From Psammoneis japonica (Eukaryota), in NCBI GenBank assembly GCA_008632985.1, contig QPGO01000066.1:389771-437525 (forward strand): a stretch of DNA of 47,755 nucleotides, read 5' to 3'. Under the pieces are notes generated by a model. It was not told the origin of the DNA. It worked only from the letters and a program-made list of their open reading frames with translations, and did no database searches. Position 1 is the first letter of the stretch, and each line of letters opens with the position of its first letter. This document shows positions 1 through 47,755 of the stretch, piece by piece. The position numbers were made by a program, and so were the translations under genes.

Positions 1-359
1 ACCACAACAATGCAATAAATGTTTTCCAACATCGAACAAACAGTGAGTCTACTCGTGAAATTTCTCGACAACGTCATTTGGGCAGGATGGACACCAAACA
101 ACACACACAATGGACATTTCATTCACTGCCCGCACAGCTGCAAAAACAAACAGCAATGGTGTGAAACAGCAACCCATGTCAGGAGTGCACCATTGTCGTC
201 GACAGAGCAGCAAAGTTCACTGTGCAAACGCTCTCTGCCGGTGATGTCGACAATGCGAAAAGAGGAGAGTGTTGTGTCATCAGTGGCAGAGGATCCCTCA
301 CAGCCTGAAAGAGATTTCTGTGTGCATGTGGCGGGGGCGATGCTGCTGCTGCTGAGAGC

Positions 360-624
360 NNNNNNNNNNNNNNNNNNNNNNNNNNNNNNNNNNNNNNNNN
401 NNNNNNNNNNNNNNNNNNNNNNNNNNNNNNNNNNNNNNNNNNNNNNNNNNNNNNNNNNNNNNNNNNNNNNNNNNNNNNNNNNNNNNNNNNNNNNNNNNNN
501 NNNNNNNNNNNNNNNNNNNNNNNNNNNNNNNNNNNNNNNNNNNNNNNNNNNNNNNNNNNNNNNNNNNNNNNNNNNNNNNNNNNNNNNNNNNNNNNNNNNN
601 NNNNNNNNNNNNNNNNNNNNNNNN
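360..624. other. Assembly gap (run of N)
   Basis: Uninterrupted Ns; ORFs that cross it are artefacts. Confidence 0.99.
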
Positions 625-749
625 CTGGCCATCTCACTTGCTGCCCGTGAAGTCAATGCAGCATTGGAGTGAAACCCCATTGCAGCCAATTCAATGGGAG
701 GAGGTGCAAAGGCAAAAGAGGCAACGGCGTTGCCTGGCTCATCTGACTG

Positions 750-1110
750 TGCATGAGTCCAAGATGCGCACTGGCGTGTCAAAATTTCCGTTGTTGTGGC
801 CAGCCGGTTTTGTCTTGCATTGCCAATTGCTTGATGCAAGCCCCATTTGCCAGCATGCAGACAGCCAATCTTGCACATCAAATCATGGCACAATGTTGCA
901 TGTTGACTCGCAAGCTGGCTTGTGCAAAACACAGTCTTGTCACCTGCCACGTGTTGCTGCCACAACGTTGCCCACCACAATGGCTTCTCTCTCTTGCTTC
1001 CTTTGCAACACAAACAATGTCTCTTTTCTTTGCCATCACAAATGACTGTCCTGTGTGTGGCAAACATTTGCTCCCAACTGGTCTTCAACATCACCTCAGA
1101 ACTCTCACTT
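750..1110 (-). mobile_element. Degenerate fragment homologous to 21560-21900, probably the C-terminal part of a Plavaka/CACTA-like transposase
   Basis: The reverse complement of ~1021-1103 (agttctgaggtgatgttgaagaccag...gcaaagaaaag) aligns by eye to 21591-21670. The family assignment is inference. Confidence 0.45.
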
Positions 1111-1344
1111 GCCTTGCAAATGCTTTTTCAGTCAATGAGTCAAAGGACGATTGTGGCAAACCACCGCCAACAGCAGAACCCAAAGAACCTGGCAACGCCA
1201 CTCCCTCCTCTGCCATCCCCCCTCCCTCCATCAAATTTAATGCCATGGGTTCTCACTCCAACACCGGGTCCACTCCACAAGTTGCAGTGCAACACAATCC
1301 CCGTCCATTGAGATCCACTCGTGAAGTGGCCCCAGTGTGAGATC

Positions 1345-1566
1345 TGACAGGATTTGAACAAGATTTTAGTTTGTCACACACAATTGTGTGTGCTTTTAGT
1401 TTCACGTGCGATGCAGTTTGCTTTCAAAAACAACAGCCACAGTGCCGACATCATGACGCCAGTCTTTCGGCTCCTGCAACGGTCTCTGCACGGAAACTCA
1501 TCTGCCATTTGGATGGCAGTGAGGAGCCATTGTTTTCTTCCACCCAGTCATCTTCATTTTCTGTCA
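1345..1566 (+). repeat. 5' LTR of copia copy 1
   Basis: Starts TGACAGGATTTGAACA, ends ...CTGTCA, shares blocks with the copy 2 LTR (ggctcctgcaacggtctctg), and is followed by the same PBS-like gattgacagtct. Confidence 0.75.
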
Positions 1567-3175
1567 GATTGACAGTCTTGGCCAATGTCCACCCATTGAG
1601 CCATCATCATTGTCATCGAGAAAATCAACAACGTGCACCAATGGCGGCGGAAGCATGTGCCTGCCACCTTCACTGCTGGGTGTTGGATTGGATGTGTGCG
1701 CTTGGATCTGTCCAATGCATCCAATCGCTGGACATGTTCATTCAACGGACATTTGTTTGGTCAGGAATTTTCGCATTCTCAGGCATCTGAGATTCTGGAT
1801 TCCTTGCAGCGGATTCCACTCCTGTTGGCAGATGGACAGACCCCATCTGCACACGTTGGCGCACACACGAGACACTGCCACCCAACTCTGGCCCTGCTCC
1901 ATGCAAGCCAAGTCTGCTGCCACCCATCTGCACTGGATTGCTGGTCTTCTGCAGTTCTCCAGCCTGCATTGGGGTGAGGGTGCTTTTCCCACATCTGTTC
2001 ATCCCTCCACAGTGCCAATTCTGGCCGGCCTGATCGGGTTGTCCAACCAACACAAAACAAGAAAGCTTTGGAGGTCTTGTCCACCTCCAGCCAGCTTGTC
2101 AGCAGGGGTTTTTAACCTGTTGCTCCACTCTCAGGCAACCCAAAGCACATCGCCAGCTGCAGATTCGAACATGCCGGAACAACTCTGCAAACCGGACAGG
2201 AAGCTCAGCAATTGACTGCAAATGGGGCATCACAGCCTGGCAGCTTCTGACTTGTGAGACACTTCAAGACTTCAAGTCAAGTTTCAAGTCATTTCAAGTT
2301 CACTCTCCAACTCCAGTCCAGGCACCCAATCAGTTGCACACCATGGTTCTCACCAGGCAGCAACAAATCAATGGCTTTGAGCACATCTTGGGCGCTGTTC
2401 TGAATCAAGCTGCAGACAGCCCACTGCACTCTGCCCTCAGCATTGACAGCAGTGACTCATGCCAGGATCTCTTCATGTTCAATCCGTTGCAACTTGATGC
2501 CCTGGTTTGCAATGACGGCACCAATCAAACACCTTTGCCCCATGGCTGCAAAGCACAAACAGCTGCTTTGATCAGTTTGTGCATGGCAAAAGCGCGCAGC
2601 GGCACTGACGTTGGCAACAACCCCACCTTGTTTGCACATGAGGAGTTTGCCAACTGTTGCCTTGGCCCCAAGCACGTTGCATCCCTCTCCATGGGTGCGG
2701 CACACCATCTGCTCCTGCTCCTGGTTCATTGCCCCCAAAACCACGTGAACCCATGCATGACTTTGAGCAAGGCATCAAGCACGACCCACTTGCCTTCACG
2801 ACTCTCAAGTCAAACAAGCAGCGGCACATGTGGCGCACCTCCATCGTTGCACAGGCCCACTCCCAGGATGTTGATCGGCTGCTGAGGACAAGGCCTTGTT
2901 TGCCAAACAACAGAAGCACATGTTTGCCGCATTTGAACACATCTTGCAAAATGACAAAGGCAAGGCACTCTTTCATGAACATGTTGGCTCCTCTGATGCC
3001 CAAGCAGTGCATCGCAAACTTTCCAACTGCATCCTTGCATCCATCCGTGCATCCCTGGAGTCCTTGACCCTTCTCACGTGCCTTGCCACTGCTCGCCTTG
3101 GTGATGGCAACTGGAAAGGCTCCACCCATGCCTTCAAACTCTCCACTGGCAGGACCAGCTTTGCAAGTGTGAAGC

Positions 3176-3571
3176 GACGCGTTCCAGACGTAGGTGGGAA
3201 TCCGTGTGACATTGGGACCGTAGACTTCTACGTGCGAGCTCCGTAGTAAAATTATACGGTAATTAAAATGTCAATGATCGCCAACAGAAAATGAGGCAAT
3301 TTTGCGAACGCACAAACTCGCCCATGATTGAAGTGCATTGTTTTTTACTTAGACAGTTACATTCTTCAGACATTGAAGAATGTAACTGGCGCATTATTGT
3401 TTCTATAATTTCGTTATATAAAACGTCTGGGGCTTCGCAAAACAGCAATTCTAGACAATTTTTTTTAAATGTCACACGTAGAAATCTACGTGCGAAACAT
3501 ACGACGGATGACAAAAATTGTTTGTGTCACACGTCAGTGCTACGAGCTCCCACCTGGGGCTGGAACACGTC
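3176..3571 (+). mobile_element. MITE type A (396 bp), least-mutated copy, inserted in copia gag
   Basis: TIRs gacgcgttccag / ctggaacacgtc, extending imperfectly to ~24 bp (aggtggga). 4-bp TSD aagc at 3172-3175 and 3572-3575. Removing the insert rejoins gag sequence that is contiguous in copy 2. Rich in TA. Confidence 0.92.
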
Positions 3572-6500
3572 AAGCTCTCATCCCAGAGATGGAAACGCTT
3601 CATGCTCAAGAACGCCATTGATCCTGTCAAAGAACTTTGTTCAGCAAAGAATCAAGCCGATCAATTTTGCACGCTGAATGGCACAGGTCTTTCATGTGAG
3701 CAGTGCTGTGGGCTCCTGCTTTCTGTGGCGGCACAGAGCAACAGCACTTTCACCCCCAAGACAGCCTCACGCTCTGCACCACGCCATCTGTGAACATGAC
3801 CTGGCTCCTGACGACCCTGACAATGACGCACTCTACAACATCGACAGTGATGTTGACGTCATTCAGGCTCATGCTGCTCAGACTCGTGGCAACTCCCTCA
3901 CCAGGGAACAACGGCGTTGCATCCTGCCGGACCACCAGCGCATCTGGGACACCTTGCCTCAGTTCACCAAGGCCATTGCGCTTGGTTTGCACACTGCCCA
4001 TGCCGGCAATTGTCATGACTTGACAGCAGTCAACCTCCACGACCTCCGTCTTGGCAGCAATGGTGACGCGCCAACTTGTTGGCCAATGCTCGTGAGCGTC
4101 TGCCTCTGAACCACCTGATGCTGCAGCTGACCCAGTTGATGCTGACCCCATCCTGGCCCACCTCACCAAGCGCAAGCCTTTGCCACCCAGTTGTCTGCAA
4201 TGTCTTCTCACACCCAAAAGGCCGCCCTCGGCCTGCTCTGGCAAGAAACCTCCCTGATCTTTGTCCTCCCGCCACACCAACACTGACATTGAGATCAATG
4301 GCCACACTTGCCATTGCGTCAACAACCACAACGTTGTCTGCTCTGCCTTGTCTCATGCCTGGACTTGCAAGGGTGCTCTCGTGGATTGTGGTGCAAACAG
4401 TGGTGTTGCCGGTGACAATGTTTGTGTTGTTGCTTGCACTGATTGTCAGGTTGACACACAAGGCATCAACAACCATCAGCTTTTCAACACCCCCATTGTC
4501 GCTGCCGGTGGTGTCATTCACATGCAATGCAGACCTGTGATTGCCATTCTTCACCAGCGTGTCTGCACTGGGAAGGGCAAGACCATCCACTCTTGCAGCC
4601 AAAACAAGTGGTGCAAACATGACACAAATGACAGGTCCATCAAGGTCCCCAATGGTTTGCAGCGCATCACCGCCATTGATGGATGCGTCATTCCTGTTGA
4701 CATCAAAGGCAGCCTTCCGTACATTGCCACATGCCTGCACTCCAATGCCAAATGGGACACCCTGCCTCATGTTGTCCTCACTGGCAATGACACCTGCAAC
4801 CCATCTGTCCTTCACCACCAGTTCACCAATGATGAACAGTGGCACAATGCTGTGTCCAACCTCCAAGACGGCTCAACTGCCAACCCATTTGACAAGTTCC
4901 GAAACTGTCGTCACCGTCATGTTGTCAACAGTGCAATGCTTGCAGACTCTGTCCTGGATGACCACCTCATTCCAACGTCCAAATTCTTCTGCAAATGTCA
5001 TGAGCGTGAGATCAACCCCAACAAGGATTCCGACTGCGAGTCTTTGCGCCCCTGTTTTGCTTCCTCTCCAATGACACTGTTTGCCAAACTTTTGACTGCA
5101 TGACACAGTGCACCCGCATGCTTGCCAGCACACACCTGAAAAAGGCGCACAAGTCACCCAACCTGGCTCTCAATGTCCGCCGATGCAACAAAACTGTTGC
5201 CACCAATGCGGTGCACTCTGACACACCCACCATTGACTCTGGCTGCATCAGTGCACATCTCTTTGTTGGCACAGAACCCCTTGTCACTGACATCTGCAGA
5301 ACCAAGACTGACAAGGAATTTGTCAACACACCTTGAAGACAACATCCACATCTGTGGTGCTCCCTCCAAGCTCATCAGCGACCGTGCTCAGGTTGAAATC
5401 AGCAACAAAGTTCTTGGCATCCTTCGTGCTCTCTTCATCTTCAGCTGGCAAAGCAAGCCCCACCAGCAGCACCAGAACTTTGCTGGGTGCCGCTGCCAGA
5501 CTGTGAAGACCATGGCCAACACCATCATGGATTGCTTTGGGTCTCCCGCTCCCACTTGAGTGCTGTCCGGTTCTGCCCCCAACATCAGCCCGCTCCTTGG
5601 CTTCCAATGGTGGGAACCCATGTGCTGCCACTTGGATGATTCCAACTGGCCTCCCAAATCCCGTGAACTCCGTGGTCAATGTGCTGGCATTGCCGAGCAC
5701 GTTGGTCATCAGATGACATTCAAGATTCTTTCTGACAACACTCAGAAGATTCTTTGCTGTTCAAACGTTTGTTCCGCCTGCAAACCATCCCCTCCAAACC
5801 TCCATCTTGACCCTCCTGACAAAGGATCTGGCAAACCTGTCATCAAATCCCATCACAACTCTGAGGACTCCACACAGATTCACCAGATGACAAGACAATC
5901 AGGATGCCCAAAATGCCGGTCTTCAATGCTGAGGACATCATCAGACGTTCCTCATGAAGCCGCAAGAGGACGGACAACACCACAGAGCCTGCATTGTCAA
6001 AGCCATTGAAGACCATGATTGGGAAATCAGAGACAACCCGGAACTGGTCAAGTTCATTTGCTCTGTCAACAATGACAAATGCAAGGAAGTCCTCCTTGCC
6101 TGCAATGATGTCATGCACCACATCAAGCAAGAAGATGAGGATTCCACCCTCTGGAAGTTCTGACATTTTGTCTCTCACGAAGGACCATTGAGGCCCCATG
6201 ATCCATCTTAGAAAGGCTCAAGCTGCAACATCATGCTTGAGTGGGAGAACGGGGAGATCACGTCTGAGCCCCTTGCCATCATTGCCAAGGATGATTCCGT
6301 CACTGGTGCCATTTGTGCATGTGAGCATGGCTTGCTCAAGACCAAAGGCTGGAAGCATTTCCAGACCACAGCTTGGTGCCAGAAGAAGCCATTCTGCATG
6401 GCCAACCAAGCCAAGTTGCGCTCCTTTTGCACCACACACCACGATGCAAGCACAGTTTTGAAGTGCCCCGGGACTGCAAGCATGCCTTGACCCTTGACAA

Positions 6501-7892
6501 ATGCAATGGCAACTGCAAATGGGGAGGCACAACAGACCTTGAGATGACTCAGCTTGACAAGTGCAAGGTCTTCCACGACTGTGGGCACTGCAAAGACTCC
6601 AGTGCTCCACCAGGACACAAGAAGATCAGGGTGCATCTTGTCCACAAGATCAAACACAATGGACGGCACAATGTCCATTCTGGAGTGGTGTTTGTCCATG
6701 GCCTGCGCATGATGATCTTCCTGGCAGAACTCAATGACCTGGAGACCTGGACAACCAACATTGGGAATGCCCATCTGAAAGCCACCACCAAGGAGAAACT
6801 GTGCATTGTGGCAGGCCCTAAATTTGGCAAGTTGGAAGGACACATCCTTGTCATCCACAAGGCTTTGTGCAGACTTTGCAGCTCCGGTCTCAGGTGGCAT
6901 GAATGCTTTGCCAATTGCTTGCATGCTGAAGGCTTCTTCCCGTGCCGCGCCAAACCTGACATCTGGTTGCGCAGAAATGGCAATCACTGCAAATGCGTGG
7001 CAGTGCATGTGGACAACCCAGCCTTTGCCATGAAGAACTCACAAGCATTTGCGGACACTCTCATGGAGAAGTGCAAGTTCAAACTCAAAGGCACTGGACC
7101 ATTGGCGGAGCTCCACCTTGGTTGCGATTTCACCCATGATCCAGATGGCACCCTGTGTCTTGCTCCCCGCAAGAGCATTGAGTGCATGGTGGACAACTGC
7201 GCACCCCTCTTTGGGGAGAAACCTTGCTCTGATGTGCCCTGAGCTTGACACCTCTGAACTGCTTGAACCAGATGGCATCCACCAGCTCCAATCCTTGATT
7301 GGCTCCCTGCAATGGGCTGCGTCCCTCGGACGCATTGACATCACTGCGGCCGTCATGTCCCTGTCTGGCTTCCACACAGTGCCTCACCAAGGCCGCTCAG
7401 ACCGTGCCAAGTGCATCTGCAGATTCCTCTCCAAGATGCAACATGGTGCCCTCTGAGTGTGCACCAAGGAGCCTGACTGTTCGGACCTTCCCAAGCTTGT
7501 GTGTGGCTGGTCCCAGTCCATGCACGGGGAGGTGGAAGAACTGCTCCCACAAGATGCACCTGAGCCACTTGGCAAGTTCGTCACTGCAACCCAAAGTGCT
7601 GACACAAACTTGTTCCATTGCATGGCATCCCACATTTCCTTAACAAGTTTCTGGCTGATTGGCTCTCCAAGAAACAAGCAACAGTTGAGGCTGCTGCATG
7701 TGGATCTGAGTTTGTTGCCACAAGGACCTGCACTGAGCAGATCATTGATCTGCGCATCACTGTCACCCTGACAATGTGAAGATTTTTTTCTGACTCATTT
7801 GATGATGCAGCCTCTCCCCTTTTGTTGACCAGTTCACTGCCTCTCTCTTGTTGAATCTGATGCCAGAATTTTGTGGTTCCCAAAGTGCACAA

Positions 7893-8235
7893 GATGCACT
7901 CTAGACATGGGTGACATTGGGCACATGGAATTCTGCATTCAAGCTCCACAGCAAAATTGCAAGGCAATGAAAATGTCAATGATCGCCATGATTGAAGTGC
8001 ATCATTTTTTGCTTGGCCAGTTGCATTCTTCAGACATTGAAGAGTGCAACTGGTGCATCATCATTTCTGCAAATTTGTCATGCAAAACGTTTGGGGCTTT
8101 GCAAAACAGCAAGTCTGGACAATTTTTTTGGAATGCCACACGCAACAATGTGCACGTGAAACATGCGATGGATGACAAAAATTGTTTGTGTCACATGTCA
8201 GCACTGCGAGCTCCCACCTGGGGCTGGAATGCATC
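7893..8235 (+). mobile_element. MITE type A, old copy with internal deletions
   Basis: Degenerate TIRs gatgcactctag / ctggaatgcatc; TSD acaa at 7889-7892 and 8236-8239. Body aligns to 3176-3571 with TA->TG/CA changes. Confidence 0.85.
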
Positions 8236-8320
8236 ACAATGGCAAGACCATGTCCATGGTTTGCATGTTGAATTTGTGTCACTCCAAGGGTGCCCCAATC
8301 AGCATGACTGATGAACTTCT

Positions 8321-10130
8321 TTGAACTGTCCAAGAGGAGTTCTTGAGTGGCGGGTTGTCAGCCAACCGCCAAATCCCCTCCTCTTGAACTTTTGTCTCAA
8401 AGCTCAATTGAGTGTTGCCCAGCATTGTCGCTCTGATGTTGAAGTGAGTCCCCTTGAGTCTGTGTCCATTGTCGGCCAACCAAAAAATGACAAACCAACA
8501 CAGCTGTCTCCCGGTGTCCCTGTGTGCAACTTTTCTCTCCAGCTTCAGGACTTGTTTGATGATCCTCTTTTTGCAGACCTCTCCAATCTTGACATTCCTC
8601 CTGAGCCACACTGTTCTCAGGTCCCATCCAATGAACCCATGCCAGACATGAATGGAGACTGGTGACTTTGTGATTGCACAGAAATGAAGGACAGAGAGAC
8701 TTGCAGCAATTGCTTGCATGGATTCTGTGATCCAGCTCTCCCTGCATTCTTTCCTGTTTTTGTCGTGCACTGTGCTGACAAAGCCGGGAAAGGACAGGTT
8801 GCCCCCCACATGATGGGTCCATTTGTTTTCTCTGTGACCATTGTCAAGGCAGGTGCATGGAGGCATTTTGAAGCATGGCGCCCTCTGGGCTTTGTCATGA
8901 AATTCACTGGCCACAAAACTGAGAACGCTGTTTTTGGCACAAATGGAGCCATTTGTTTTCTCTGTGACCATCATCAAGGCAGGTGCATGGGGGCGTTTTA
9001 AAGCATGGTGCCCTCTGGGCTTTGTCCCAAAATTCTCTGGCCACAAAACTGAGAATGCTGTTTTTGGCATGAATGTCAGAAATCATCATTGCACTGCATC
9101 CGTCATTCTTGCATCTGCAGCTGCAGTGCCAGAATTGCTGCCAATGTGCCGCATCTGACTGGGAGACCAGTGCTGTTCCAAGCACATGATTGTTCACAGC
9201 ATCACTTCAATGGGCAACGCCAAAGTCACTGGCCGTGTTTCAGGTTGCAAAAACACTTGTTGCATTGGTCATGCGTGTCTCACATCGTGGGGTGTGCAGC
9301 GACCAACCTTCACATTGTTGCAGGTGTTTTTTTCAGGAAGTGATGAAGTGTCTTACGGTGGCTGCTCTTGGACCACCTCCTGGCTCCACCAACAGTCTGT
9401 GGCATTTGTGAATCAAGTCAACAACTCCAGCTGTGGTGTCAAAGTTGAAAGCAAAATCTTTGTTTGCTGGCATGTGGCGCTGTTGTGCAACACATGGACA
9501 TTTGTGCCACCACACTTCACAAGGTGTTTGGTCAACACATGGCAGACAATGCATTCTCTCCTCTTTGGATGCTTGGAGACAACCATCAGGGAATGTTTGG
9601 TTTTGCCTCACCCAATCCAATGCACATTTTTCAAGGTGCCACAGTCCCCCAGTGGCTTTCTGTGACACTTGACAATTTGCCCGACTCCACGGAAGGACCG
9701 CTTGACGATCTGGCCATTCGTGTGTTTGGATCTCAGTGGTGCAGGCCCACCCAGAGATCAAACTTTCCACTGGTTGTCCTTTTGCACCTTGTCCAGTTTG
9801 ACCTGTGACCAAAAAATGGGCAAGCTTTTTGCACTTGCACTGGCGGGTCAAACCAAGGAGAGGTGCAGCATGCTCCACCTTTGATGTCATCCTGACTTTG
9901 ACAAGACAAAGAAAAAGTGAGCCTTTCAGTTTGATGCCGGTCACCCCAAGTGTGGATCACAAAAGAATGGGTGACAAACTCATGGGACAGTGATGTTGCT
10001 TGCTGTTGCAAAACAGCCAAAACAAAGCAGGCAATGAAGAAGGACAATTGAAAATTGGGTGAGTCTTCAAACAACATGGAAAATGAAAATGAATTCTGCA
10101 TGATGAATGATGCGCCAAAACAAAGCTGCA
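8321..10130 (+). mobile_element. Degenerate Plavaka/CACTA-like transposase fragment
   Basis: Frameshifted ORFs carry motifs such as LQDLFDDPLFADLSNL, DMNGDW, PVFVVHCADKAGKG..MGPFVFSV and SMGNAKVTGRVSG. These resemble diatom Plavaka-type transposases from memory; an HMM search is needed. Confidence 0.5.
8811..9070 (+). repeat. 130-bp tandem duplication (2 copies)
   Basis: ccatttgttttctctgtgaccat...ggccacaaaactgagaa.gctgtttttggca occurs at 8819-8939 and 8949-9069. Confidence 0.9.
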
Positions 10131-12453: not shown

Positions 12454-12468
12454 GATTGACAGTCTCGC
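12454..12468 (+). promoter_or_regulatory. Putative primer-binding site gattgacagtctcgc
   Basis: Directly follows the 5' LTR and is conserved at the same position in copy 1 (1567, gattgacagtct). Confidence 0.6.
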
Positions 12469-36589: not shown

Positions 36590-36916
36590 GATGGAACTGA
36601 TGATGAGTGAGGATTGGATTTGATGGACGGAGCGGCGGCTCGAGTGGAGGATACACATTTGTGCATGTTTGAGAGAAAGATGGTTCGGCGGAACATCAGA
36701 AGAAAAGAGACCAGATGGCAGACGCGTCTTTGTTGTTGCATATCACAGGAAAGCCTAAGCCTTGGTCCGTGAGTCGAACACAAAAATTATTGACACATGG
36801 AAAAAACAAAAAACTCATGGATGCAAGAGAAAAACCAACTGTACTTGGATAGATAGAGTTAATATCTAACAGGAGCTTGGTGCGGTTGAAACATGGTGTG
36901 TAAGTAGAAACATTGT

Positions 36917-39700
36917 GACAGTTGGGAAAATTCTACTCGGAGCACGATTTTCTGCGACCTCGCGACCTCGCACTTTCGGACCTCGCACTTTTCTCTGCGC
37001 ACGAGCGCGCGAGCATTCGCCTTGGTGGCGCCCGCCGTTGTTCCATTGTTGCTTTGACTGCTGTCGTTCCATTGTTGGTCACTCGTTCCATCACATGAAT
37101 GTTGTGGAACGACAGGGCCCTGCTGACACATCACACTTGCGTTGTGTTTGTTTGTCACAGCCTCCAAGAACCGGCCTTGCCAAGCTGGGTGAGCATTTTC
37201 TTCGTGGAAACCACCAAGTTTCGCACAGGCTCGATGGTCACCCCACCCAGTTCACACATGGCAAAATCTTGCAGCATGTGGTGCTGCGCCTGTGGTGGCC
37301 AATGAGGGTGGCAACGCCGGCAGTGAATGTGATTGGGGTCATCACTTTGGCCTCAAGATCGACAAGAGTGGGTTTTTTTCAAATGGGCGTTTCGTCGGTG
37401 CTCATGGTGATGATGGAGGTTGTGTGGCAGGGGAGCAGAATTGCGGAAATGTGGGCACCCCCATCCCCTGTTGACAAGCAAAGTGAAATGTGTGTCACGA
37501 GTTGCGATGGAACCTGCTTGAACTTCAGCGTCAGTGGACTCGCTGTCACTTGCGGCTTTGCAGCGAAGATGAAGGGTGGAAACAGCGGCAATTTCCATGA
37601 GTGCGGTCCTGGTTGCACTTCCAACACACTTCTGCTTGAATCTCTTCCAAACAGTCAGGGTGCCACACTGGGGCTCAGCCACCTGATGTTCTGCTGGGAG
37701 GATTGTGATGGTGGCTGCGACTGCGCTCCTCTCCCAAACTTTGTGGCGCCAGCTGACGACACTGTTGAATGCTGCAAAACAACGGACCCTGCAGAAGAAG
37801 GAATCCACAATGAAAATGATGGTTGTGATGTGGGAGGAACAATCACGTGAACATGCTTCAACACCGTGGTGGATGGAGATCTCTGCTCTGGCAAAACCAC
37901 CAAGCAATTCTAGAATCTAGCCTTTTCTGACAAAGAGACTTGTGGTGGAGTTCATCCAATGATGCAGACTGTTGAGGTCAATCCGGACAAAATGCCGCCA
38001 ACAATCTCTTGTCTGCCCCAGGTTGAAGTCCCCAAAGAGTGTTGTCTCTGCAAAATGGGTGCTGAATGTTTGGCAGATGCGGCAGCAGAAGATGCTTGCA
38101 ACCCACCCGTGGCCATTGCCAGCGACTTTGCAGCGTTCACCTGTGCTGACACTGGCACTCCAATCTCTGACACTGGCATGATGCACATTGTAACTTGAAC
38201 GGCAGTGGACTGTTGTGGCAATGAGGCCACATGCAACCGGTCAGTCATGATTGTCAACTCTGCACCAACGCTTGAAGATCCTCCTGCTGTCCCGACTCTG
38301 AAGTGCAAAGATCCTGTTCCTGCTGCAGGTCCACTGAAGGCGATGGACACATGCGATGGTGATGTGCCAGTCTGTCCAGACAAGAAAACAGACAGTGCGG
38401 GATGTGACTGCATGCACAGTTGCACATGGACCCATGTGGACACACATGCGGCAAAGCTGCAGAGAAAAAAAGCAGGTTGTCAAAGTTTGCAAGGGCACGG
38501 ACGACCCATGCTTCACTTCTTGTCCATCCCAAGTCATTCAGAAAGAGCATTGAAAGTGAAGAAGGGTTGACGACTGCTTTGGAGGAGATTCAACAGCAGA
38601 AGACATTTGCGACTCAAATGTCAACATTGCCAGTGACTTCACGCCGTTCAACTGCTGTGCTGACGTTGGTCACACATGTGAAGTCATTGCCAACTCTGAG
38701 CCAACACTTCCAGATCCTCCTGTTGACATGGATCTTGGGTGCAACGCAGATCTTCCACTGGCAGATCCACTGACTCCGACAGACACATGCAACAAAGACA
38801 TTCAGCCAGTCATGCCAACTGAAAAGGAAGAAAATGCAGGCTGTGACTGCAAGTGTGTGCTTGCACATGGGCCTGTGTGGATGAATCCTTGGAAACAGTG
38901 AAAAAAAAACAGGTTGTCAAAGTTTGCATTTATGATGAGGATCCAATCTCCCTGCTGAGCCTGGGGACCTGGAGGTTTGCAAAGGTGATCGTCCATCTGT
39001 GCCATTGCTGATGGCAAGCAACAACTTTTGATGAGCCAATCTCTGGCATCTCAATGGAAAACATCAAGCTGGCTGGTTGCCGCGACATGGTCATGCACAC
39101 CTGGACCTTTGCGGATCAATGCAGCAACTCAGATTCACTCCATCAGATCATCTGGTGGGCACTGCAGTCATCCCTGCTTTGACAAGGGTTGTGATGATGG
39201 AGAGTGCACTTTTTTTCTGATGGTGGGTCCAAAATCCCAAGCACGTGCTGAGGTGAACATCACAAAGCTGAAGAAGATGACAGCTCCTGTCTGGTGGACT
39301 TCAAAGGGCATGCCAGCAAGGCCCAGAATGACCCTGAGAAGGGTGAGCACTGGAGAGGCAGTGCACGAAGATCTTTCTTCTGTGGTCATTGAGGAGAGGC
39401 ACATCCACATCAGCACCAAAGTTCCCACTGCTGGCAAAGGGAAGCCTGCCTCTGCTCCAGGAAGGCACAAACAGGAAGGTTGTGAGGGGGATGGAGTTCT
39501 TGCTGGGACATGTTGCACCATTGTCCACTGCGTTGTCCATTTCCTTTGCAACATGAAGTTGACGGAGTTGTTGCATCTTGTGCACTCTTTCAATTGATCA
39601 TGAGTGAGGTGGTTTCTGTTTTGTCATTGAAGGAATGACAAGAGTGTGGTTGTGGTGCAGTGTTTGGTGGGTGGATGGCAGGTTTGGAAACCAATGCGCG
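36917..39700 (+). repeat. Segmental duplication, copy 1 (paralogous to 45063-47625)
   Basis: Colinear shared blocks: cagttgggaaaatt, ctgctgg..ga.tgtgatggtggctgcga, gacagtgcgggatgtgac, cacatccacatcagcaccaaag..cccactgctggcaaagggaagcctgc. Confidence 0.88.
37383..39560 (+). pseudogene. Pseudogene of a secreted HYR-like repeat protein
   Basis: Frameshifted pieces PNFVAPADDTVECC, DKMPPTISC..AEDACNPPV, AVDCCGNEATC, APTLEDPP..LKCKDPVP..MDTCDGDV and TWTF(A/V)DQCSN show the 4-Cys HYR-like pattern. TA-depleted. Confidence 0.65.
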
Positions 39701-39705
39701 ATTGG

Positions 39706-40087
39706 TTGTGCCCCATGCAAAAATGGGGTCCAAGTGCTTGGTCACAAAGAGGTTGACAATTCGTGTGTTGCGCAAACCACGAGACTGTTTTGCGCAGAGT
39801 GTGTGCACGTGCGACAGCAAGACATGCCGTGTCTTCAGTCCCTGCGCGGAACCAATCACACTCGGCACTGCGCACATCCTACGCAGTCCCTTCGTGCAAG
39901 GTGAGTCACGCACGCGATGGCCAGTCGTGCCGGTCTCAGTCGTGTGGAACTCCCGCAGCCCTTCGTGGGTCTCATGCTGAGAGTCGCATTTCCTGATGCG
40001 CGCTTCTGTGGGATCAGCATCGCTGCGGACAGCCTGCAGACACAGGAAAGTGGCATCAACGGCAGCTGCGGCAGGGATGCCTGCTGC
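39706..40087. repeat. ~380-bp repeat, second copy at ~43580-43962
   Basis: Near-identical translations (KRL.IRVLRK.RDCFAQS..SKTCRVFSPC.EPI.LGTA); function unknown. Confidence 0.85.
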
Positions 40088-40129
40088 ACTCACCCCTGTG
40101 ACAAGGTCGTGCGAGTGACAGAAGGGTCC

Positions 40130-40560
40130 CACAGCTGGAAAAGGACATTTTTTGTTGTGTCCAAAAAACCAGCATGCCTTCTCGTGCACGAAGGATGACA
40201 TTTTCATTGACTTGAACAACTGCAGCTGGCCCTGAACAACAGTTGTCGGTGCCGCCATTTGTCCGTTGTTCGTGCTCAATTCTCGCGCTTGTCTGTCAAG
40301 TGGAACATTTTCTGATTTCTGTCTGAGACATGCCTCCACTTGTTGCAAAAGGCAACAGACAATCTTGTGTCACGCCCGAAGACTAACTGCATCGGAGTTG
40401 CCTTGGCAGTGGTGTGCACAGTTGCACAGCAGAAAGTTTCAGTCCAAGGGTCATCTTTGCCTGACTCCATGTCTTGCACTTGGAGCACTGTGCTGAGAAC
40501 GTGCATGTGCCGGTGCGGCAGCATCAAGTTTCCAATCGTCTGATGTGCGCGTTCCATGAT
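40130..40560 (-). mobile_element. Ty3/gypsy integrase C-terminal fragment
   Basis: ERAHQTIGNLM...DDPW...ATVHTTAKATPMQLVFGRD...W..V..RNQKM...KREN matches the end of the gypsy integrase core. Confidence 0.8.
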
Positions 40561-41649
40561 GGAGTTCGACCTGGGTGAAAAAAAAAAAGGAAAAAAGGCA
40601 GTGCATCGACATGTGTGCAGAGTTGATCAGGCTCCACTTTCTGTCATGGCAACACCCCTTCTGTCTTTGACAGGCAACAGACAAAGCAAAAAATTTTTGC
40701 TCGTGTCACATTCTTTCACCTTCACGGAAAGAACGCATCAAATTTGCATTTGAATGGCGGGCCTTTCGTCACAAAGCTCTTTTTACGCCAGCTCGGGTTG
40801 TTTTTTGAAGTTTGCATGCCTTTTTGGGCATTTTCATGCCTTTTTCCAGGCATTTTTATAACTTTTGCAATTTTGTAGCCGAAGTGTCATGTCCTCACAT
40901 TCAGCGTTTAAAAACGGCATTCTTTCTTTCCGTTTGTTGAGTTCGTCAAGTGGGCGCACCGGAGTTTTCGGCCCGCTCACTTTCTGCGTAGCCTGGCACA
41001 ACCCAAATCTGTGTAGATTCAGCACATTTTGCCCTGCAGAACAGTTTTTGGGAGTGTTTTCTGGCTCGCGGCTCAAAATGACACACAAAACAACACGGAC
41101 AATGGCGTTTCACCGATTTGAAAAATGCGATCGTCTCTGAGGTTGGAAAGATGCGAGATGAGCTTGAGAATGTCCAGGTTCACATGGGTGGATCATGGTG
41201 CAATTTTGACCTGAAGATTGGTGTTGACACCGCCGCTTTTGTTGCATCAACACGCAACTCATGCATCACCATTCATGCTTTGCCTTTTGTTGAGTGCTCA
41301 CACGTTCACATTCTTTTCACTTGCGTGTGTCTTGTCTTTCCTCATTGTTGTTTTGTTCTGCAGGGTCTCTCTTGCCGTGAGCCATCCTGAGAGAGAAATG
41401 CTTGCTTTGCAATTTTGCCGCACATTTGACCTGCATCCAGAAGGTGATGCGGAGTTTTGTTCGACAGAGAAACGCACCATGGCAATTGTGAAGGGTTGGA
41501 TTGTTTCTTTGTTCTACAAGGCAGTTTACAAGCTAGAAACATGTGACTTGTTTGCCTGCATTGTCAGCCAGTGCAACAAATTTAGAGGTGACAGGTGATG
41601 CACCATGCACAAACAACGAACCAAGCCTCAAAAGCACAGCAGGCCAGCT

Positions 41650-42045
41650 GACGCTTTCCAGCCCCAGGTGGGAGCTCGCAGCACTGACGTGTGACACAAA
41701 AAATTTTTGTCATCCGTCGTATGTTTCGTGCGCACATTTCTGCGTGTGACATTTCAAAAAAATTGTCCAGACTCGCTGTTTTGCGAAGCCCCAGACGTTT
41801 TACATGACAAATTTGTAGAAACAACAATGCGCCAGTTACATTCTTCAATGTCTGAAGAATGCACCCAGCCAAGCAACAAATGATGTTCTTCAATCATGGA
41901 CGAGTTTGTGCATTCGCAAAATTGCCTCATTTTCTGTTGGCAAACATTGACATTTTAATTGCCTGATGATTTTAACACGGAGCTCGCACGTAGAATGCTG
42001 CGGGCCCAATGTCACACGGATTCCCACCTGCGTCTGGAACGCATC
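41650..42045 (-). mobile_element. MITE type A (396 bp), intermediate mutation load
   Basis: Ends gacgctttccagcccc / ctggaacgcatc; TSD agct at 41646-41649 and 42046-42049. Same length as 3176-3571. Confidence 0.92.
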
Positions 42046-43965
42046 AGCTGGAGAGTTTGCGCCAACAGGAAGAACTGGCTTTGCTGTTTGTCACAGGACA
42101 GCAGATTTCACTTCATTGGGGCAACAAGTCTCCATTGCTGTTCTAGAGTGACCAGCATTGGTTTGGCCGCTGCAGCCTTCATGGATGCCCGCCTCTTGAC
42201 AATCTGTTTTATTTTGAGATTGTGCAATGAAAAACCTTTGTTTGCAACATTCCATCACAAGAGAGAGCTCATGGGCTTTCCTTGGCCCTTTGAAGCGATC
42301 AGGCAAGTGAAAGAGGAGCCAACAGAAAGACACTGACGACGACAATGAACGACGCCATTTTGATGCACTGTCGTCTGGTGGTGTCGTTGATGGAGTGCCG
42401 TGCTTTCTGTTTTGTGCTGCTGCTGTGCAGGAATGTGCATGCTTGGCTCTCAGGCAGTTCCCACATAAAAAGTGCACCAGGCCATCTGTGGACCGCCCTC
42501 TTGAAGTCAGCCAAACCGAATGGTCTGCAGCCCGTGAGCGGCCAAGTGCTCTCAGTTTTTAGTTTTTAGAGCACATTGGCTTTTGCACGCACCACTTGTC
42601 ACATTTTGGTTTTTTTCATTGCACTCTGCCGAGCGTTTCGTCACACAACGGCTCATTCAGCACTTTTTTAGTTGGCAGAGGAGAGCATGTGTGCACAGCA
42701 CTCCTGTGTGCGCACACTTTTCTCGCATGATGGGTTTTTCCCTTTGAACCCTTCGAGCGTCACATCAATTAACGTCTCACATCCAAATGTCAGCGCATGA
42801 AGTCATTCTTGCTGCGCGTCATTGTTTGTGTGCGGCAGGCCTTTCGTCTGACATGCTGTTCGGCCTTGATGTTTTTGCGCAGCGGACAGCATCTTTGCTG
42901 CTGTGGTCATTCTCACATTTGAGTGTCAACAAATGACGTGCACATGACACTGCGCCCAGGATTGTTTGCGTCCAGTGCGAGCATTGGCTCTGGGCCATTT
43001 ACAGGCCTTGCAGAAATGTTGTGTCTATTCCACATTCCTGAGACGTGAAAAACATGCCACAGGCGTTGTCACAAGTCATTTTCTGTTGACTGGGCCGTTT
43101 GGAATGTCTAAACTGCCATTTTTGCGTAGTTTGCAGCACTGCAGCACCTTCTTGGCAGTCATCGGTGTCAGCATCTTTCTTGCCGGCAATTGATGAAATT
43201 TAGAACAAGATTCTCAAATTGCTCACGAAACGCGACATCTGCGGTTTTCGTGTCAAGCGTGTTGAATCTTGGAGTTCTCTTCTTGCACTGACATGCACGA
43301 GGTCTGTCACTTGACGAGATCAATTTTCTCATCATTCGGCAGTGCATGCGGTGCATCACCGCCATTGTCAATCGTTGAAAGTTCTGAAAAGACACTCGCA
43401 CGCGTTCTCATGGCACGATTGCCATTTTGGCGAGTTTTGCTTTCTGCTGTCCTCCCAATGAAACAGTCACAGAGAACAGGAAAATGACATTCTGTTGCGT
43501 CCCACTCTTCTCTGTAGAACGGCTGACAGTCATGGTCAGTCAAACAAAGGGCATTCTTGCACTTGCTGGGAGCAATGTTGCTGTGCCCTGTGCAAAAACA
43601 GGGTCTGAGCACTCAGTCACAAAGAGGTTGATGATTCGTGTGTTGCGCAAATTGCGAGACTGTTTTGCGCAGAGCATGTGCATGCGCGACAGCAAGACAT
43701 GCCGCGTCTTCAGTCCCTGCATGGAACCAATCATGCTCGGCACTGCATGCATCCCATGCAGCCCCTTCACACAAGGTGAGTCACGCATGCGATGGCCAGT
43801 CGCACCGGTCTCAGTCGCGTGGAACTCCCGCAGCCCTTCGTGGGTCTCACACTGAGAGTTGCATTTCCTGATGCGCACTTCTGCGGGATCAGCGTCACTG
43901 CGGACAGCCTGCAGATGCAGGAAAGTGGCATCAACGGTGGCTGCGGTGGGGATGCCTGCTGCAGT

Positions 43966-45085
43966 TGGGAGGAGGAGTGTTGCACAGCATTTTTAGCTTG
44001 CACAAGTGAGAGTGCTCCAATTGCTTGGCATCTGTGGGCAAGACGAATGACCTTCAGAGGAAAGAAAAAAAACAAACCCAGTTTTCAAGTGCTGTCACTC
44101 CTTTGCCAGCTGGGCTGGCGCACCGGCTGACCCACACTTCCAGTGCACCACAAGGTGCGGCAGAAGTTGTCCGTGACTGGCCAGGATGGGCATCACCAGA
44201 AGGTGACGCCCCACCAAAATGACTTGCAATCAAGCAAAATTGTTTTTCAAGCTGTCTTTCATGCATGGTTCAATCATTGCAACCCAATTTGGGACTCGCA
44301 ATGTTGAGCAACTCATGTGTTCATCCGCTGACTCCAACAGTGCATCGCAGTCACGTGCAAGATGCTCCTGGTGTTTGTTGCAAATGGCAGCAAGTTCAGC
44401 TTCCGCCTGATGCTGCAATGAAGACTTCCGGGAATTTGTGTCATGTCCGTGCATGGCTGCATTGTGCTGTTCCCAAAGCTCCCACCACACTTTCCAAATG
44501 CAAGTGCCAATTTGAAAAGACCATGCCGGAGGGGGCCCATTTTCCTGGCGGCATTGCTCCAGCTTTCCAGTTTCTCGGAGGTGTGTCTCTGGGCAGACAT
44601 TCCATGACTTGGAGAATCTCCTGTCAAACACTTGATGCCATCCAATGTCAGTCTGCTTGTGCCACAGTGTGCAAACACACCATGGCACCCTAGAGCCAGG
44701 CCTCTGACATGTGCAGAAGAAAGTCACGCAAAGGGGGCATTGTGCCCATCTTGTCACAATGTCATCAAAGACCTTGCAAGAACTTCCATCTCCAAGGCTC
44801 ATTGTTTGGACACCAAAGAATGTGGTCTCAATCCTCCATTGGGTGTTCACAGGCAAGACAGTGATGAGGATGCACCGGGTTGCATCTGTTCGCGATTTTG
44901 TTCACAGGCAGCAATTTAAGTGGGAGCTTGACTGTGGAAACATGTTTCTTCAAGAATCGTTGAATGAGTGTGGCATGGACTGGCCAATCAATTGTGTCAG
45001 CAGTGGTCTCGTCCCAAACTTTCCACTCCCAGATGTGGGCCAACAAGGCTGGTGTGCAAGCAGAAACAGTTGGGAAAATTCCACT
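43966..45085 (-). mobile_element. 3' fragment of a non-LTR (LINE-like) retrotransposon
   Basis: IDWPVHA..., LLPVNKIANR..PHHCLACEHPMED*DHILWC (CCHC-type knuckle), QTDIGWHQVFDRRFSKSW and IWKVWWELWEQHNAAMHG match the C-terminus of diatom LINE ORF2 proteins. Confidence 0.7.
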
Positions 45086-47625
45086 CTCTAGAGAGCTGGA
45101 GGAGCAGTGCGATTTTCTGCAACCTCTTGTGTGTCGCGACCTCGCACTTTTGGACCTCGCACTTCTTCTCTGCGCAGGAGCGCACGAACATTCGCCTTGG
45201 CGGCAACCTTTGTTCCATTGTTGCTTTGACTCACTCCATTGTTGGTCACTTGTTCCATCACATGTCATGGAATGACACTGGCCTGTCACACTTGCGTTGT
45301 GTTTGTTTGTCACAGCCTCCAACCGGCCTTGCCAAACTGGATGAGCATCTTCTTTGTGGCAACCACCACCTCGTTTTTCACAGGCTCAATGGCCACCCAA
45401 CCGAGTTTCTGCATGGTGGCATTTCACAGCGTGTGGTGCTGATGGCGCTGATGGAGGTTTTGTGGTGGGGGAGCAGAACCACAGAAATGCAGGCACCCCC
45501 ATCCCCTGTCAACAAGCAAAGCAAACCCACTTGAGCTTTCATGTCAGTGGACTTGCTGTCGCAGCTTTGCAGCAAAGATGAAGGGTGGAAACAGTGGCAA
45601 CATCTGTGACCACGGTCGTGGCTGCACTTCCAACACACTTCGCTCAAATCTTGTCCAAACAGAGTCAGGGCTCCACAGCGGGGCTCAGTCACCTGACATT
45701 CTGCTGGAAAGAATGTGATGGTGGCTGCGATTGTGCTCCTCTCCCAGACATTGCAGTGCCAGCTGACGACACTGTTGAATGCTGCAAAATGACAGACCCT
45801 GCAGAAGATGGAATCCAAGATGAAAATGATGGCTGTGATGTGGGAGGAATGATCACGTGAGCACACTTCGACGCCGTGGTGGATGGAGATCTGAAGGCAA
45901 TGGACACATGCAATGGCGCTGTGCCAGTCCATCCAGACAAGGAAACAGACAGTGCGGGATGTGACCGCACATGCACCCACACATGGACCCATGTGGACAC
46001 ACATGCGGCAAAGCCGCGGAGAAAAAAAGCAGGTTGTCGAAGTTTGCAAGGACACGGATGACCCATGCTTCACTTCTTGTCCATCCCAAGTCATTCAGAA
46101 AGAGCATTGTGAGTGCAGAATGGTTGACGACTGCTTTGGAGGAGATTTGGCAGCAGAGCTCAAACGTCAAAGCTGCAGGTTGTCGAAGTTCGCAAGGACA
46201 CGGACGACCCATGCTTCACTTCTTGTCCATCACAAGTCATTCAGAAAGAGCGTTGTGAGTGCAGAACGGTTGATGACTGCTTTGGAGGAGATTTGACAGC
46301 AGAGCTCAAACGTTGACGCTGCCAGAAACTTTGCGCAGTTCAACAGCTGTGCTGATGTTGGTCACACATGCGATGTGACTTGGACAGCCAAGTGCGATTG
46401 CGACAGTGAGAGGACCAACGCTTCCAGATCCTCCTGTTGACGTGGATCTTGGGTGCAGTGCCGATCTTCCACTGGCAGACCCACTGACTCCAACAGACAC
46501 ATGCAACAAACACGTTCAGCCAGCCACGCCAATGGAAAAGGAGGAAAATGAGGGCTGTGACACACGGGCCTGCAAGCATGAACAATGCTTGCAAACAGTG
46601 GAGAAAGTGGAGCAGGTTGTCAAAGTTTGAAATGACATGGATGGCCCACACTTCACTTCTTGTCTGTCCCAAGCCTTGCAAGTGTGGAATGGTCAATGAT
46701 GACTGCTGTGGAGTCGATTTAACAGCAGAAGACGTTCGCGACTTGAAAGGAAGAAAATGAGGGCTGTGACTGCAAGTGTGCTCGCACATGGGCTGATGCA
46801 GATGAGTGCTTGCAAACAGTGAAGAAAGAGCAGGTTGTTGAAGTTCACGTGGATGACGAGGAGCCAATTCTCCCTGCCAAGCCTGGGGACCTGGAGGTTT
46901 GCAAAGGTGGTCGTCCATCTGCGCCATTGCTGATGGCAAATGACAACTGCGATGAGCCAATCTCTGGCATCTTGGTGGAAAACATCAACCCGCCTGGTCG
47001 CTGCAACATGGTTGCGCACACCTGGACCTTTGTGGATCAATGCAGCAACTCAGACTCACCCCATCAGGAGATCATCTGGTGGGTGTTGCAGCCATCCCTG
47101 CTTTGACGAGGGTCGCAATGATGGGGAATGTGTTTTCTTTTCTGATGGTGGGTCTGATGTCACAAGGCCAAAGAAGGCAACAGCTGTCTGGCAGCCTTCT
47201 TCAAAGTGCATGCTGGCAAGGCCCAGAGTGACCCTGAGAAGGGCAGACATGTCAGCAATGTGACTTTGAACCTTTGCATGGGATTGGCAGTGCATGAAGA
47301 TCTTTTGTCTGTGGTCACTGAGGAGAGGCACATCCACATCAGCACCAAAGTCCCCACTGCTGGCAAAGGGAAGCCTGCTTCTGCTCCAGGAAGGCACAAG
47401 CAGGAAGGTCGTAGAGGCAATGAAGTTCTTGCTGGGACGTGCTGCGCTGTTTTCCACTGCGTTGTCTATCCAACTCCTTTGCCACATGAAGTTGATGGGG
47501 TTGTTGCATCTTGTGTGTCATTTTTGTTGATTGCACATGAGGTGGTTTCTGTTTTGTTGTTGAAGGAACGACGAGAGTGCGGTTGTGGCATGGTGTTTGG
47601 TGGGTCGATGGTGGGTTTGAAAACT
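45063..47625 (+). pseudogene. Segmental duplication copy 2, carrying a second HYR-like pseudogene (~45440-47500)
   Basis: Colinear with 36917-39700, with different internal deletions and duplications. Contains PDIAVPADDTVECC, PTLPDPPVDVDLGCS..TDTCN and AHTWTFVDQCSNSD. Confidence 0.75.
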
Positions 47626-47679
47626 GATTTGATTGGTTGGGAGGAGGAGTGGTTGCACATTGCACAGCATTTTTAGCTT

Positions 47680-47731
47680 TTGGGGTTGGGGTCAGGGTTG
47701 GGGTCAGGGTCAGGGTTGGGGTTGGGGTTGG
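47680..47731 (+). repeat. Degenerate interstitial telomeric tract, apparently derived from (TTAGGG)n
   Basis: Eight full hexamers in register (TTGGGG x5, TCAGGG x3) plus a partial TTGG. Confidence 0.85.
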
Positions 47732-47755
47732 CAAGACGAGTGACATTCGGAGGGA

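Follow-up and report, generated by a model that had tools for sequence, protein, structure and literature searches.

A 47,755-bp stretch of contig QPGO01000066.1 (positions 389,771 to 437,525), hereafter referred to as the window, appears to carry the footprint of a DNA-level process that acts after integration and converts the palindromic dinucleotide TpA (TA) to TpG or CpA across a silenced, CpG-decayed transposon domain, while sparing a transcription unit embedded within it. We assign this reading a probability of approximately 0.8. The direction of the change, its specificity for TpA, its independence in each copy, its action after insertion, its sharp borders and its decoupling from CpG decay can all be read directly from the window. 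An initial annotation of this DNA had proposed a system resembling fungal repeat-induced point mutation (RIP) but with reversed chemistry. The process itself is supported by our analyses, but it is not unprecedented, because the accessible text of a 2026 preprint on Bigelowiella natans describes the same mutation spectrum (Mettrop et al., bioRxiv 10.64898/2026.01.13.699255). A process of this kind is thus already published, and the window is best regarded as what it leaves behind in the long term. New here are a preference for TAY over TAR, a spared block that coincides with one transcription unit, and the loss of TA where CpG is nearly intact.

TpA is nearly absent from most of the window

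The window has a near-equal base composition and comprises three parts.

1..29580, no strand assigned: left TA-depleted domain of degenerate mobile DNA (TA observed/expected ratio (o/e) mostly 0.00-0.14, CpG o/e 0.10-0.83)
29581..36934, forward strand: TA-normal, CpG-normal block corresponding to one transcription unit (571 bp upstream, putative exon 1, putative intron, long open frame and 345 bp downstream)
36935..47755, no strand assigned: right TA-depleted domain with diverged duplicates and a HYR_4C remnant, of which 37.0-39.7 kb is at single-copy depth

Over the whole window the o/e values are 0.15 for TA, 1.70 for TG, 1.61 for CA and 0.58 for CG. When the sequence is divided into 1-kb bins, TA o/e ranges from 0.00 to 0.16 everywhere except at 29-37 kb (0.30-0.70) and in bin 3,001-4,000 (0.41), the latter of which contains a young copy of a miniature inverted-repeat transposable element (MITE). 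Bins 1,001-29,000 and 37,001-47,755 thus have TA o/e values of at most 0.41, with mean TG/CA o/e values of approximately 1.5-2.0. Only 434 TA dinucleotides are present in total, 279 of which fall within 29.5-37.0 kb and another 25 within a 397-bp island at 3,176-3,572.

The depleted part (39,631 bp, outside 29,581-36,934) contains 153 TA dinucleotides, compared with 2,450 expected (standard deviation 41, minimum 2,334) from 200 mononucleotide shuffles of the same DNA. This corresponds to an o/e of 0.06 over approximately 40 kb, or a TA frequency of 0.0039 (153/39,631). The depletion is therefore real and far beyond chance, and the statement in the initial annotation that TA is nearly absent for kilobases, with TG and CA in excess, outside ~29.6-36.9 kb and the youngest MITE is borne out by these counts. 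The missing and surplus dinucleotides also balance. Deficits of 2,296 TA and 1,298 CG (3,594 combined) are approximately equal to excesses of 1,832 TG and 1,721 CA (3,553 combined). TA-free gaps reach 1,631 bp in the window, and eight of them exceed 1 kb. As a control, the 80 best-matching metagenome loci that encode related copia RTs have TA o/e values of 0.31-1.00 and a longest TA-free gap of 378 bp, and none of these 80 loci is TA-free; two Tyr-free environmental proteins described below, P0048 and P0099, are outside this set.

On both strands of the depleted part, the stop triplet TGA occurs 1,863 times, whereas TAA and TAG occur only 125 and 89 times. Because TAA and TAG are nearly gone, long open reading frames (ORFs) are found in all six frames, and the window holds 75 stop-to-stop ORFs of at least 150 amino acids and 233 of at least 90 amino acids. 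Gene predictors would report false genes in such TA-free DNA (1-29580 and 36935-47755), and false ORFs of this type may be relevant to the many unannotated predicted coding sequences (CDS) in the TpA-depleted clusters of B. natans.

Conserved Tyr codons of two copia elements have been converted

Two copia-type long terminal repeat (LTR) retrotransposons reside in the left domain and carry RVT_2 (reverse transcriptase, RT) ORFs.

1960..7757, forward strand: copia-type copy A, internal region, with RVT_2 ORF 6325-7239
12173..19696, forward strand: copia-type copy B, with RVT_2 ORF 17619-18488, flanked by an LTR-like direct repeat

In self-comparison, the copia-like elements at 1,960-7,757 and 12,889-19,103 are ~66-69% identical. 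The peptide motifs quoted in the initial annotation, in which conserved Tyr residues are replaced by Cys or His, are all present at the expected codons: HVDN (7006), KALCRL (6859), GNAHLKA (6763) and KLCI (6796) in copy A, and CVDD (18324), KALHGL (18177), GNACLEA (18081), KLCI (18114) and HKARL (17937) in copy B.

To define which positions are conserved, we used the 120 listed of 937 RT homologs, whose overall Tyr content is 4.7% and of which 115 exceed 3% Tyr. These 115 served for column definition, where a conserved Tyr column is one with Tyr in at least 70% of the homologs. Copy A retains Tyr at 0 of 10 conserved columns (5 Cys, 4 His and 1 Ser) and copy B at 0 of 8 (6 Cys and 2 His), such that Tyr is kept at 0/18 positions and replaced by Cys or His at 17/18. 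The codons now occupying these columns are TGC (9), TGT (2), CAT (4), CAC (2) and AGC (1). Moreover, at four of the eight Tyr columns that are shared, one copy has Cys where the other has His. Other conserved residues are retained in the two copies, including Phe (7/7 and 6/6), Trp (4/4), His (6/6 and 7/7), Ile (6/6 and 5/5) and nearly all Leu. The copies additionally exhibit changes of Arg to His, Cys or Gln and of Asp to Asn, as expected from CpG decay.

The same pattern occurs elsewhere. Among the 120 listed homologs, four environmental copia RTs keep at most 50% of conserved Tyr residues, and the remaining positions are almost all Cys or His. Tyr is kept at 0/9 positions in P0048, at 0/10 in P0099 and at 4/10 in each of P0071 and P0080. 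These four proteins come from several data sources, and the same footprint is therefore seen in metagenome assemblies. Their occurrence hints that the process operates in wild populations.

A MITE family polarises the change from TpA to TpG or CpA

A family of MITEs with terminal inverted repeats of ~25 bp is represented in the window by five copies or fragments.

3176..3572, forward strand: young MITE copy, 25 TA retained and surrounded by TA-free DNA
7888..8236, forward strand: decayed MITE copy, with 0 TA left at the TA sites of the young copy and nearly all of these now TG or CA
27232..28935, forward strand: cluster of decayed MITE copies or fragments (27232-27446 and 28356-28935)
41649..42045, reverse strand: partly decayed MITE copy, 7/25 TA retained

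The TA-rich young copy (3,176-3,572) was used as the polarising reference and compared with its four siblings. Its 25 TA sites correspond to 81 site-copies in the siblings, of which 33 are TG, 28 are CA, 11 are still TA and 9 are something else. Thus, TG or CA is found at 61 of the 81 positions where the young MITE has TA, whereas the reverse, TA in a sibling where the reference reads TG or CA, is seen at just 2 of 178 positions. CG sites of the reference are less affected (77 site-copies: 43 CG, 17 TG and 12 CA), and the remaining dinucleotides are 77-98% unchanged, except for those overlapping TA. When sorted by the preceding base, A-to-G changes occur at 35/82 positions after T (0.43), compared with 1/132 after A, 7/88 after C and 2/84 after G (0.008-0.08). 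Changes of T to C before A occur at 29/81 positions, and all transversions together amount to 53/1,278.

The outcome at a given site varies among copies, as illustrated by site 3,191 (TG/CA/CA/CA) and site 3,417 (TG/CA/TG). Because the outcomes differ between copies, the copies must have been mutated independently and after copying. Divergence after insertion is also evident for the LTR-like direct repeat of copy B (12173-12451 / 19418-19696, 86% identity), whose two members would have been identical at insertion if they are a true LTR pair. They differ by 35 transitions and 4 transversions, and 20 of the transitions constitute 10 dinucleotides that are CA in one member and TG in the other. 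Across ten repeat pairs in the window, 218 CA/TG discordances are observed versus 1-33 for each of seven other double-transition classes, although this class mixes ancestral TA with ancestral CG and serves as supporting evidence only. Polarity consequently rests on the MITE family and the Tyr codons, since pairwise discordance cannot separate the two ancestral states.

Mutated TpA sites favour a pyrimidine at the following position

When MITE changes are resolved by strand, TAC is mutated most often (31/47), followed by TAT (12/31), TAG (9/36) and TAA (9/48). Sites reading CTAC have become TG seven times and CA never, whereas GTAG sites have become CA nine times and TG three times, from which it follows that the strand presenting TAC is the strand mutated. 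Beyond this position there is no preference for G at +2 in the MITE data (TACG 19/31, TACA 5/6, TACC 4/4). The Tyr codons divide according to their third base, with TGC outnumbering CAC (9 vs 2) and CAT outnumbering TGT (4 vs 2).

The TA dinucleotides that survive provide a third view. Among 130 such sites in depleted DNA, TTAA accounts for 21%, compared with 5% of TA in the gene block, and CTAA/TTAG and CTAG are also enriched. In contrast, ATAT is found 0 times and ATAC/GTAT once (chi-square p = 7e-14). TGC is also the most inflated TGN triplet (2.11 vs 1.06 in the gene block). As far as sequence can specify it, the context rule is TAY > TAR or, if T is the target, RTA > YTA.

The spared block is one transcription unit

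The block at 29,581-36,934 contains the only intact gene of the window, which encodes a HYR-repeat protein of ~1,880 amino acids (30152-36589, forward strand).

30152-30232, forward strand: putative exon 1 of 27 codons, MMKTTTAFSALALIALQSFTSVHGNLM, followed by GTAAGT
30950-36589, forward strand: open frame of 1,879 codons with tandem 88-amino-acid HYR-like repeats

The edges of the block are step-like. TA o/e is 0.04 in 28,936-29,580 and 0.00 in 36,935-37,600, compared with 0.44-0.70 inside, and the right border lies no more than 40 bp from the start of a duplicated segment. Within the block, TA o/e is 0.60 in the 571 bp upstream, 0.68 in the putative intron, 0.62 in the coding region and 0.44 in the 345 bp at the 3′ side. 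Selection on codons cannot explain this sparing, because the non-coding parts are as TA-rich as the coding parts while the flanks have values of 0.04 and 0.00. The unit of exemption is therefore the transcription unit, including its non-coding parts.

This arrangement bears on the proposal in the initial annotation that repeats are the target. A mutated domain that excludes one transcription unit is indeed observed, but repeat targeting is not established, given that some of the mutated sequence has the read depth of unique DNA.

TpA loss outpaces CpG decay

CpG is also depleted in the mutated domain (o/e 0.48, versus 1.09 in the gene block), and residual TA and CpG are correlated over 38 1-kb bins (Spearman 0.78). 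This correlation is what shared age would give. Two observations separate the processes. The interval 36,935-37,600 has 0 TA in 666 bp at a CpG o/e of 0.82, and MITE siblings retain 14% of TA compared with 56% of CG. Thus, TA loss is faster than CG loss and can be complete where CpG is nearly intact.

Sequencing data reproduce the TpA-free sequence

A search of sequencing runs identified a DNA run (X1) that contains 75% of sampled words from the window; no RNA run was listed as a match. Contigs from X1 cover 36,000-39,738 in six pieces, which have 0, 0, 2, 0, 1 and 0 differences relative to the window. Depth in X1 is 53-63 on either side of the border, which places the TA-free DNA at 37.0-39.7 kb at single-copy depth. 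The absence of TA is therefore not an error of assembly. In the X1 piece with two differences (38093 and 38216), the window has TG where the run has CG; these are CpG/TpG polymorphisms or allelic differences in a methylated-looking domain.

Candidate mechanisms

Taken together, the polarised MITE comparison, the Tyr codons and the LTR-like pair support the claim of the initial annotation that a DNA-level mutator converts TpA to TpG or CpA on both strands of silenced mobile DNA. An A:T-to-G:C transition occurs on either strand of TA, with each strand mutated separately, and the strand presenting 5′-TAY-3′ is preferred, with TAC as the best context. For the chemistry, our tentative first choice, at somewhat less than even odds, is that a putative TadA/ADAT2-type deaminase converts adenine in DNA to hypoxanthine, which would be read as G at the next replication. 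Such a deaminase might be guided to its target by silent chromatin or small RNAs. The predicted outcome is the permanent inactivation of mobile DNA, because all Tyr codons and the TA-containing codons for Ile, Leu and Val would be altered.

Several points weigh against this reading or parts of it. Because TA is palindromic, an attack on A and an attack on T leave the same sequence behind. The MITE site-copies share ancestry, and their counts represent non-independent events. Support for the TAY rule comes from a single MITE family, 18 Tyr codons and the spectrum of surviving TA, and the MITE counts and that spectrum disagree on the best context (TAC versus TAT). A TA-intact MITE lies inside TA-free DNA, which indicates that the process acts slowly or in episodes and not at once. 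The assembly may have been made from the same sample as run X1, in which case X1 rules out an error of consensus but not one that is common to a chemistry. Finally, the context only half matches the UACG site of bacterial TadA, as far as the source for that site describes it, in that there is no +2 G preference and TAT is also a good context here.

An alternative that we judge unlikely, but the most serious competitor, places the chemistry on thymine. A TET/JBP-type dioxygenase would produce 5-hydroxymethyluracil (5hmU) and then 5-formyluracil (5fU) at TpA in silenced DNA, and the oxidised base would mispair with G or be misrepaired, yielding T-to-C changes at TpA on either strand. The data read equally well as 5′-RTA-3′ with T changed to C, owing to the palindromic nature of TA. 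T followed by A is the preferred site of base J in the telomere repeats of trypanosomes and of 5hmU in the DNA of dinoflagellates, and 5-formyluracil pairs with G. However, the window carries no sign of such a base, 5hmU itself pairs normally with A, and the accessible preprint text favors a deaminase and reports an ADAT2-like candidate (bioRxiv 10.64898/2026.01.13.699255). The initial annotation had also listed error-prone repair of the polymerase eta type (WA to WG), recruited by deamination of 5-methylcytosine in methylated repeats. That TA and CpG depletion share a domain and are correlated, as noted above, would agree with such a mechanism, but this correlation is expected from shared age and TA has been erased where CpG o/e is still 0.82 (36,935-37,600, with 0 TA). 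Furthermore, the WA motif includes AA, yet A changes to G after A in 1/132 cases versus 35/82 after T, and changes of A to T or C are rare at TA, where only 9/81 outcomes are neither TG, CA nor TA, transversions included. We therefore regard this candidate as highly improbable.

Explanations in which the changes arise in RNA or during reverse transcription fare no better. ADAR-like A-to-I editing of double-stranded transcripts of transposable elements, or errors by RT, could in principle be fixed by retrotransposition, and ADAR favors U on the 5′ side of the edited A, according to the accessible text of the preprint (bioRxiv 10.64898/2026.01.13.699255). A second source, likewise seen in part, gives 5′UAG as the hot spot of wild-type ADAR (PMC10661471), whereas TAG is a poor context here (9/36), opposite to the 3′ preference of ADAR. 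In addition, a non-autonomous DNA element (the MITE) has been mutated as strongly as copia, the LTR-like repeats of a single insertion have diverged after insertion through CA/TG discordance, both strands are affected and, in B. natans, mutations arise in integrated single-copy DNA, as far as the preprint text extends (bioRxiv 10.64898/2026.01.13.699255). These findings uphold the earlier assertion that neither RT error, RNA editing nor CpG decay can explain the pattern, and an origin in RNA is hard to credit.

It is equally hard to credit that the pattern arose during sequencing or assembly, as it might if heterochromatin carried a modified base that is called as G or C. Some platforms do systematically miscall modified bases. 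However, contigs of X1 recover the TA-free sequence, each piece with 0-2 differences, at a depth equal to that of the TA-normal gene, paralogues are fixed for TG versus CA at the same site in a manner unlike read-level error, and environmental copia proteins from other data sets share the change of Tyr to Cys or His. Least probable of all is that the elements were born TA-poor, or that TA was removed by selection or biased gene conversion, a view in favor of which we found no observation. The young MITE is TA-rich, Tyr content is normal in 115 of the 120 RT homologs listed and 80/80 control loci have TA o/e values of at least 0.31. Decayed pseudogenes are not under selection, and GC-biased gene conversion is not specific for TA, whereas A changes to G after A, C or G at rates of only 0.008-0.08 here.

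Other features of the window

A scaffold gap of 265 N is located at 360-624 within the left repeat domain. The right domain includes duplicates at 36,894-40,088, 45,050-47,639 and 43,582-43,963 that share 75-90% identity. A Pfam scan of 383 ORF entries of the window (20 of which overlap others) yielded RVT_2 in two ORFs and a sub-threshold HYR_4C match at 46,747-47,103, with all other matches weak and at chance level. No gypsy, LINE or transposase domain was found in these 383 entries. The contention of the initial annotation that all element classes are affected is hence substantiated for copia and the MITE family, and is unsupported by Pfam for gypsy, LINE and DNA transposase elements. No viral genes were found in the window, and scans of it for Rfam families and tRNAs gave no matches.

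Summed contig depth at the MITE at 41607-42140 is ~45,000-109,000, compared with ~55 in unique DNA, from which we conclude that the family is highly repeated in the genome, with copies that by this depth would number in the thousands. Contigs derived from other copies of the host repeat lack this MITE exactly (joints 41647>42046 and 41648>42051), and therefore the MITE at 41.6-42.1 kb was inserted into an older repeat.

The intact gene contains approximately eleven tandem 264-bp units (88 amino acids) that are up to 93% identical in DNA. Putative exon 1 has a sequence that we take by eye to be signal-peptide-like. The closest database relatives of the HYR-repeat protein are metagenome proteins of 35% identity, some of which carry Pfam domains of the Por_Secre_tail or CHU_C type; domains of these types are typical for surface proteins of bacteria. 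Given its putative intron and putative signal peptide, the gene may encode a bacterial-type adhesin that has been domesticated by a eukaryote. No close paralogues of this gene were found in the flanks by tblastn, where matches had E values of at least 0.24. Weak HYR-like remnants are nevertheless present in the TA-free right flank at 46747-47103 (forward strand; HYR_4C, E = 3.4e-5, below cut-off) and at 38064-38306 (forward strand; tblastn E = 0.24-0.36). These may be decayed paralogues of the adjacent intact gene, and if so then non-transposon duplicates have been mutated too.

Significance and relation to known systems

A TA-specific A:T-to-G:C mutator directed against mobile DNA would constitute a third mutational genome defence beside RIP and APOBEC, and one that opposes the universal bias of mutation from GC to AT, a view backed so far by one preprint. 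The window displays the long-term outcome, in which transposons have lost their Tyr codons along with two of the three stop codons, and GC content has risen by several percent. Three features offer handles on the mechanism, namely the preference for TAY, a border that coincides with the edge of a transcription unit, and a loss of TA that does not depend on CpG decay. If the enzyme is indeed a deaminase that acts naturally on adenine in DNA, it would be a counterpart, for A, of RIP and APOBEC and in effect a natural 'adenine base editor', with relevance to both genome defence and base editing. Should the window lie outside the B. natans strain of the preprint, or in an unexplored part of its genome, it could represent a standing, domain-wide defence that sterilises transposon landscapes in a marine protist lineage, follows a TAY rule, stops at a transcribed gene and employs a natural DNA adenine deaminase; this broader scenario is possible, although we think the odds are against it.

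Like fungal RIP, the process inactivates mobile or duplicated DNA by irreversible transition hypermutation and leaves a kilobase-scale dinucleotide footprint. RIP, however, changes C:G to T:A, mostly CpA to TpA, and thereby makes TA and lowers GC content, whereas here TA is destroyed and GC content rises. RIP also needs duplication and a premeiotic stage; the right border in the window is near a duplicated segment, yet the DNA at 37.0-39.7 kb is at single-copy depth. Deamination of 5-methyl-CpG likewise gives TG and CA and is visible in the same domain, but it cannot remove TA or convert TAY to TGY or CAY. AID/APOBEC enzymes provide a parallel for enzymatic deamination of DNA in a short context against mobile or foreign DNA, with the reservation that deamination is presumed in our case. 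APOBEC enzymes produce C-to-T or G-to-A changes on single-stranded intermediates, in contrast to the A:T-to-G:C changes in integrated DNA of both element classes observed here.

Among adenine deaminases, ADAR-type editing is restricted to RNA intermediates and prefers G on the 3′ side, and neither property is seen in the window. A 'YAC' preference is associated with TadA editors, a point for which our literature search returned no confirmation. Bacterial TadA edits at UACG, and fungal mRNA editing, which has been likened to tRNA editing of the ADAT type, prefers A or G at +1, as stated in the accessible part of one article (PMC10027721). The T at -1 and C at +1 of the UAC core in bacterial TadA targets are both found here, with TAC the best context in the MITE data, while the pyrimidine at +1 is opposite to the A or G favored in fungal mRNA editing.

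The closest known counterpart remains that of Mettrop et al. (bioRxiv 10.64898/2026.01.13.699255), and no further report of TA-to-TG/CA hypermutation was found in our full-text searches; a search on methylation and transposable elements in B. natans returned nothing useful. According to the accessible text of this preprint, nuclear point mutations that arose de novo in mutation-accumulation lines of B. natans numbered 302, of which 231 fell in integrated DNA of a nucleocytoplasmic large DNA virus (NCLDV) and a virophage. Within these viral regions 230 of 231 mutations were A-to-G or T-to-C changes, all of these at TpA. The mutations were confined to some lines, and the NCLDV target is single copy. 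The same text describes 324 predicted CDS with a TpA frequency of 0.0018 that are enriched for RT, endonuclease-RT and DDE domains, suspects a deaminase and names an ADAT2-like candidate.

The window shares several attributes of that process, as its mutations are almost exclusively A-to-G or T-to-C changes at TpA and its targets are foreign or mobile (copia RT and the MITE family). Depletion of TpA coupled to a gain of CpA and TpG in clustered 1-kb windows is common to both, although our o/e values may not have been computed in the same way as the Rho values of the preprint. The TA frequency of 0.0039 is of the same order as that reported for the B. natans CDS. In the portion of the preprint that we could consult, depletion of the two viral inserts is only partial (Rho TpA 0.45 for the NCLDV), whereas TA in the copia and MITE remnants described here has been erased almost totally. 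That text does not describe a preference for a pyrimidine at +1, a border that coincides with a transcription unit or a separation of TA loss from CpG decay.

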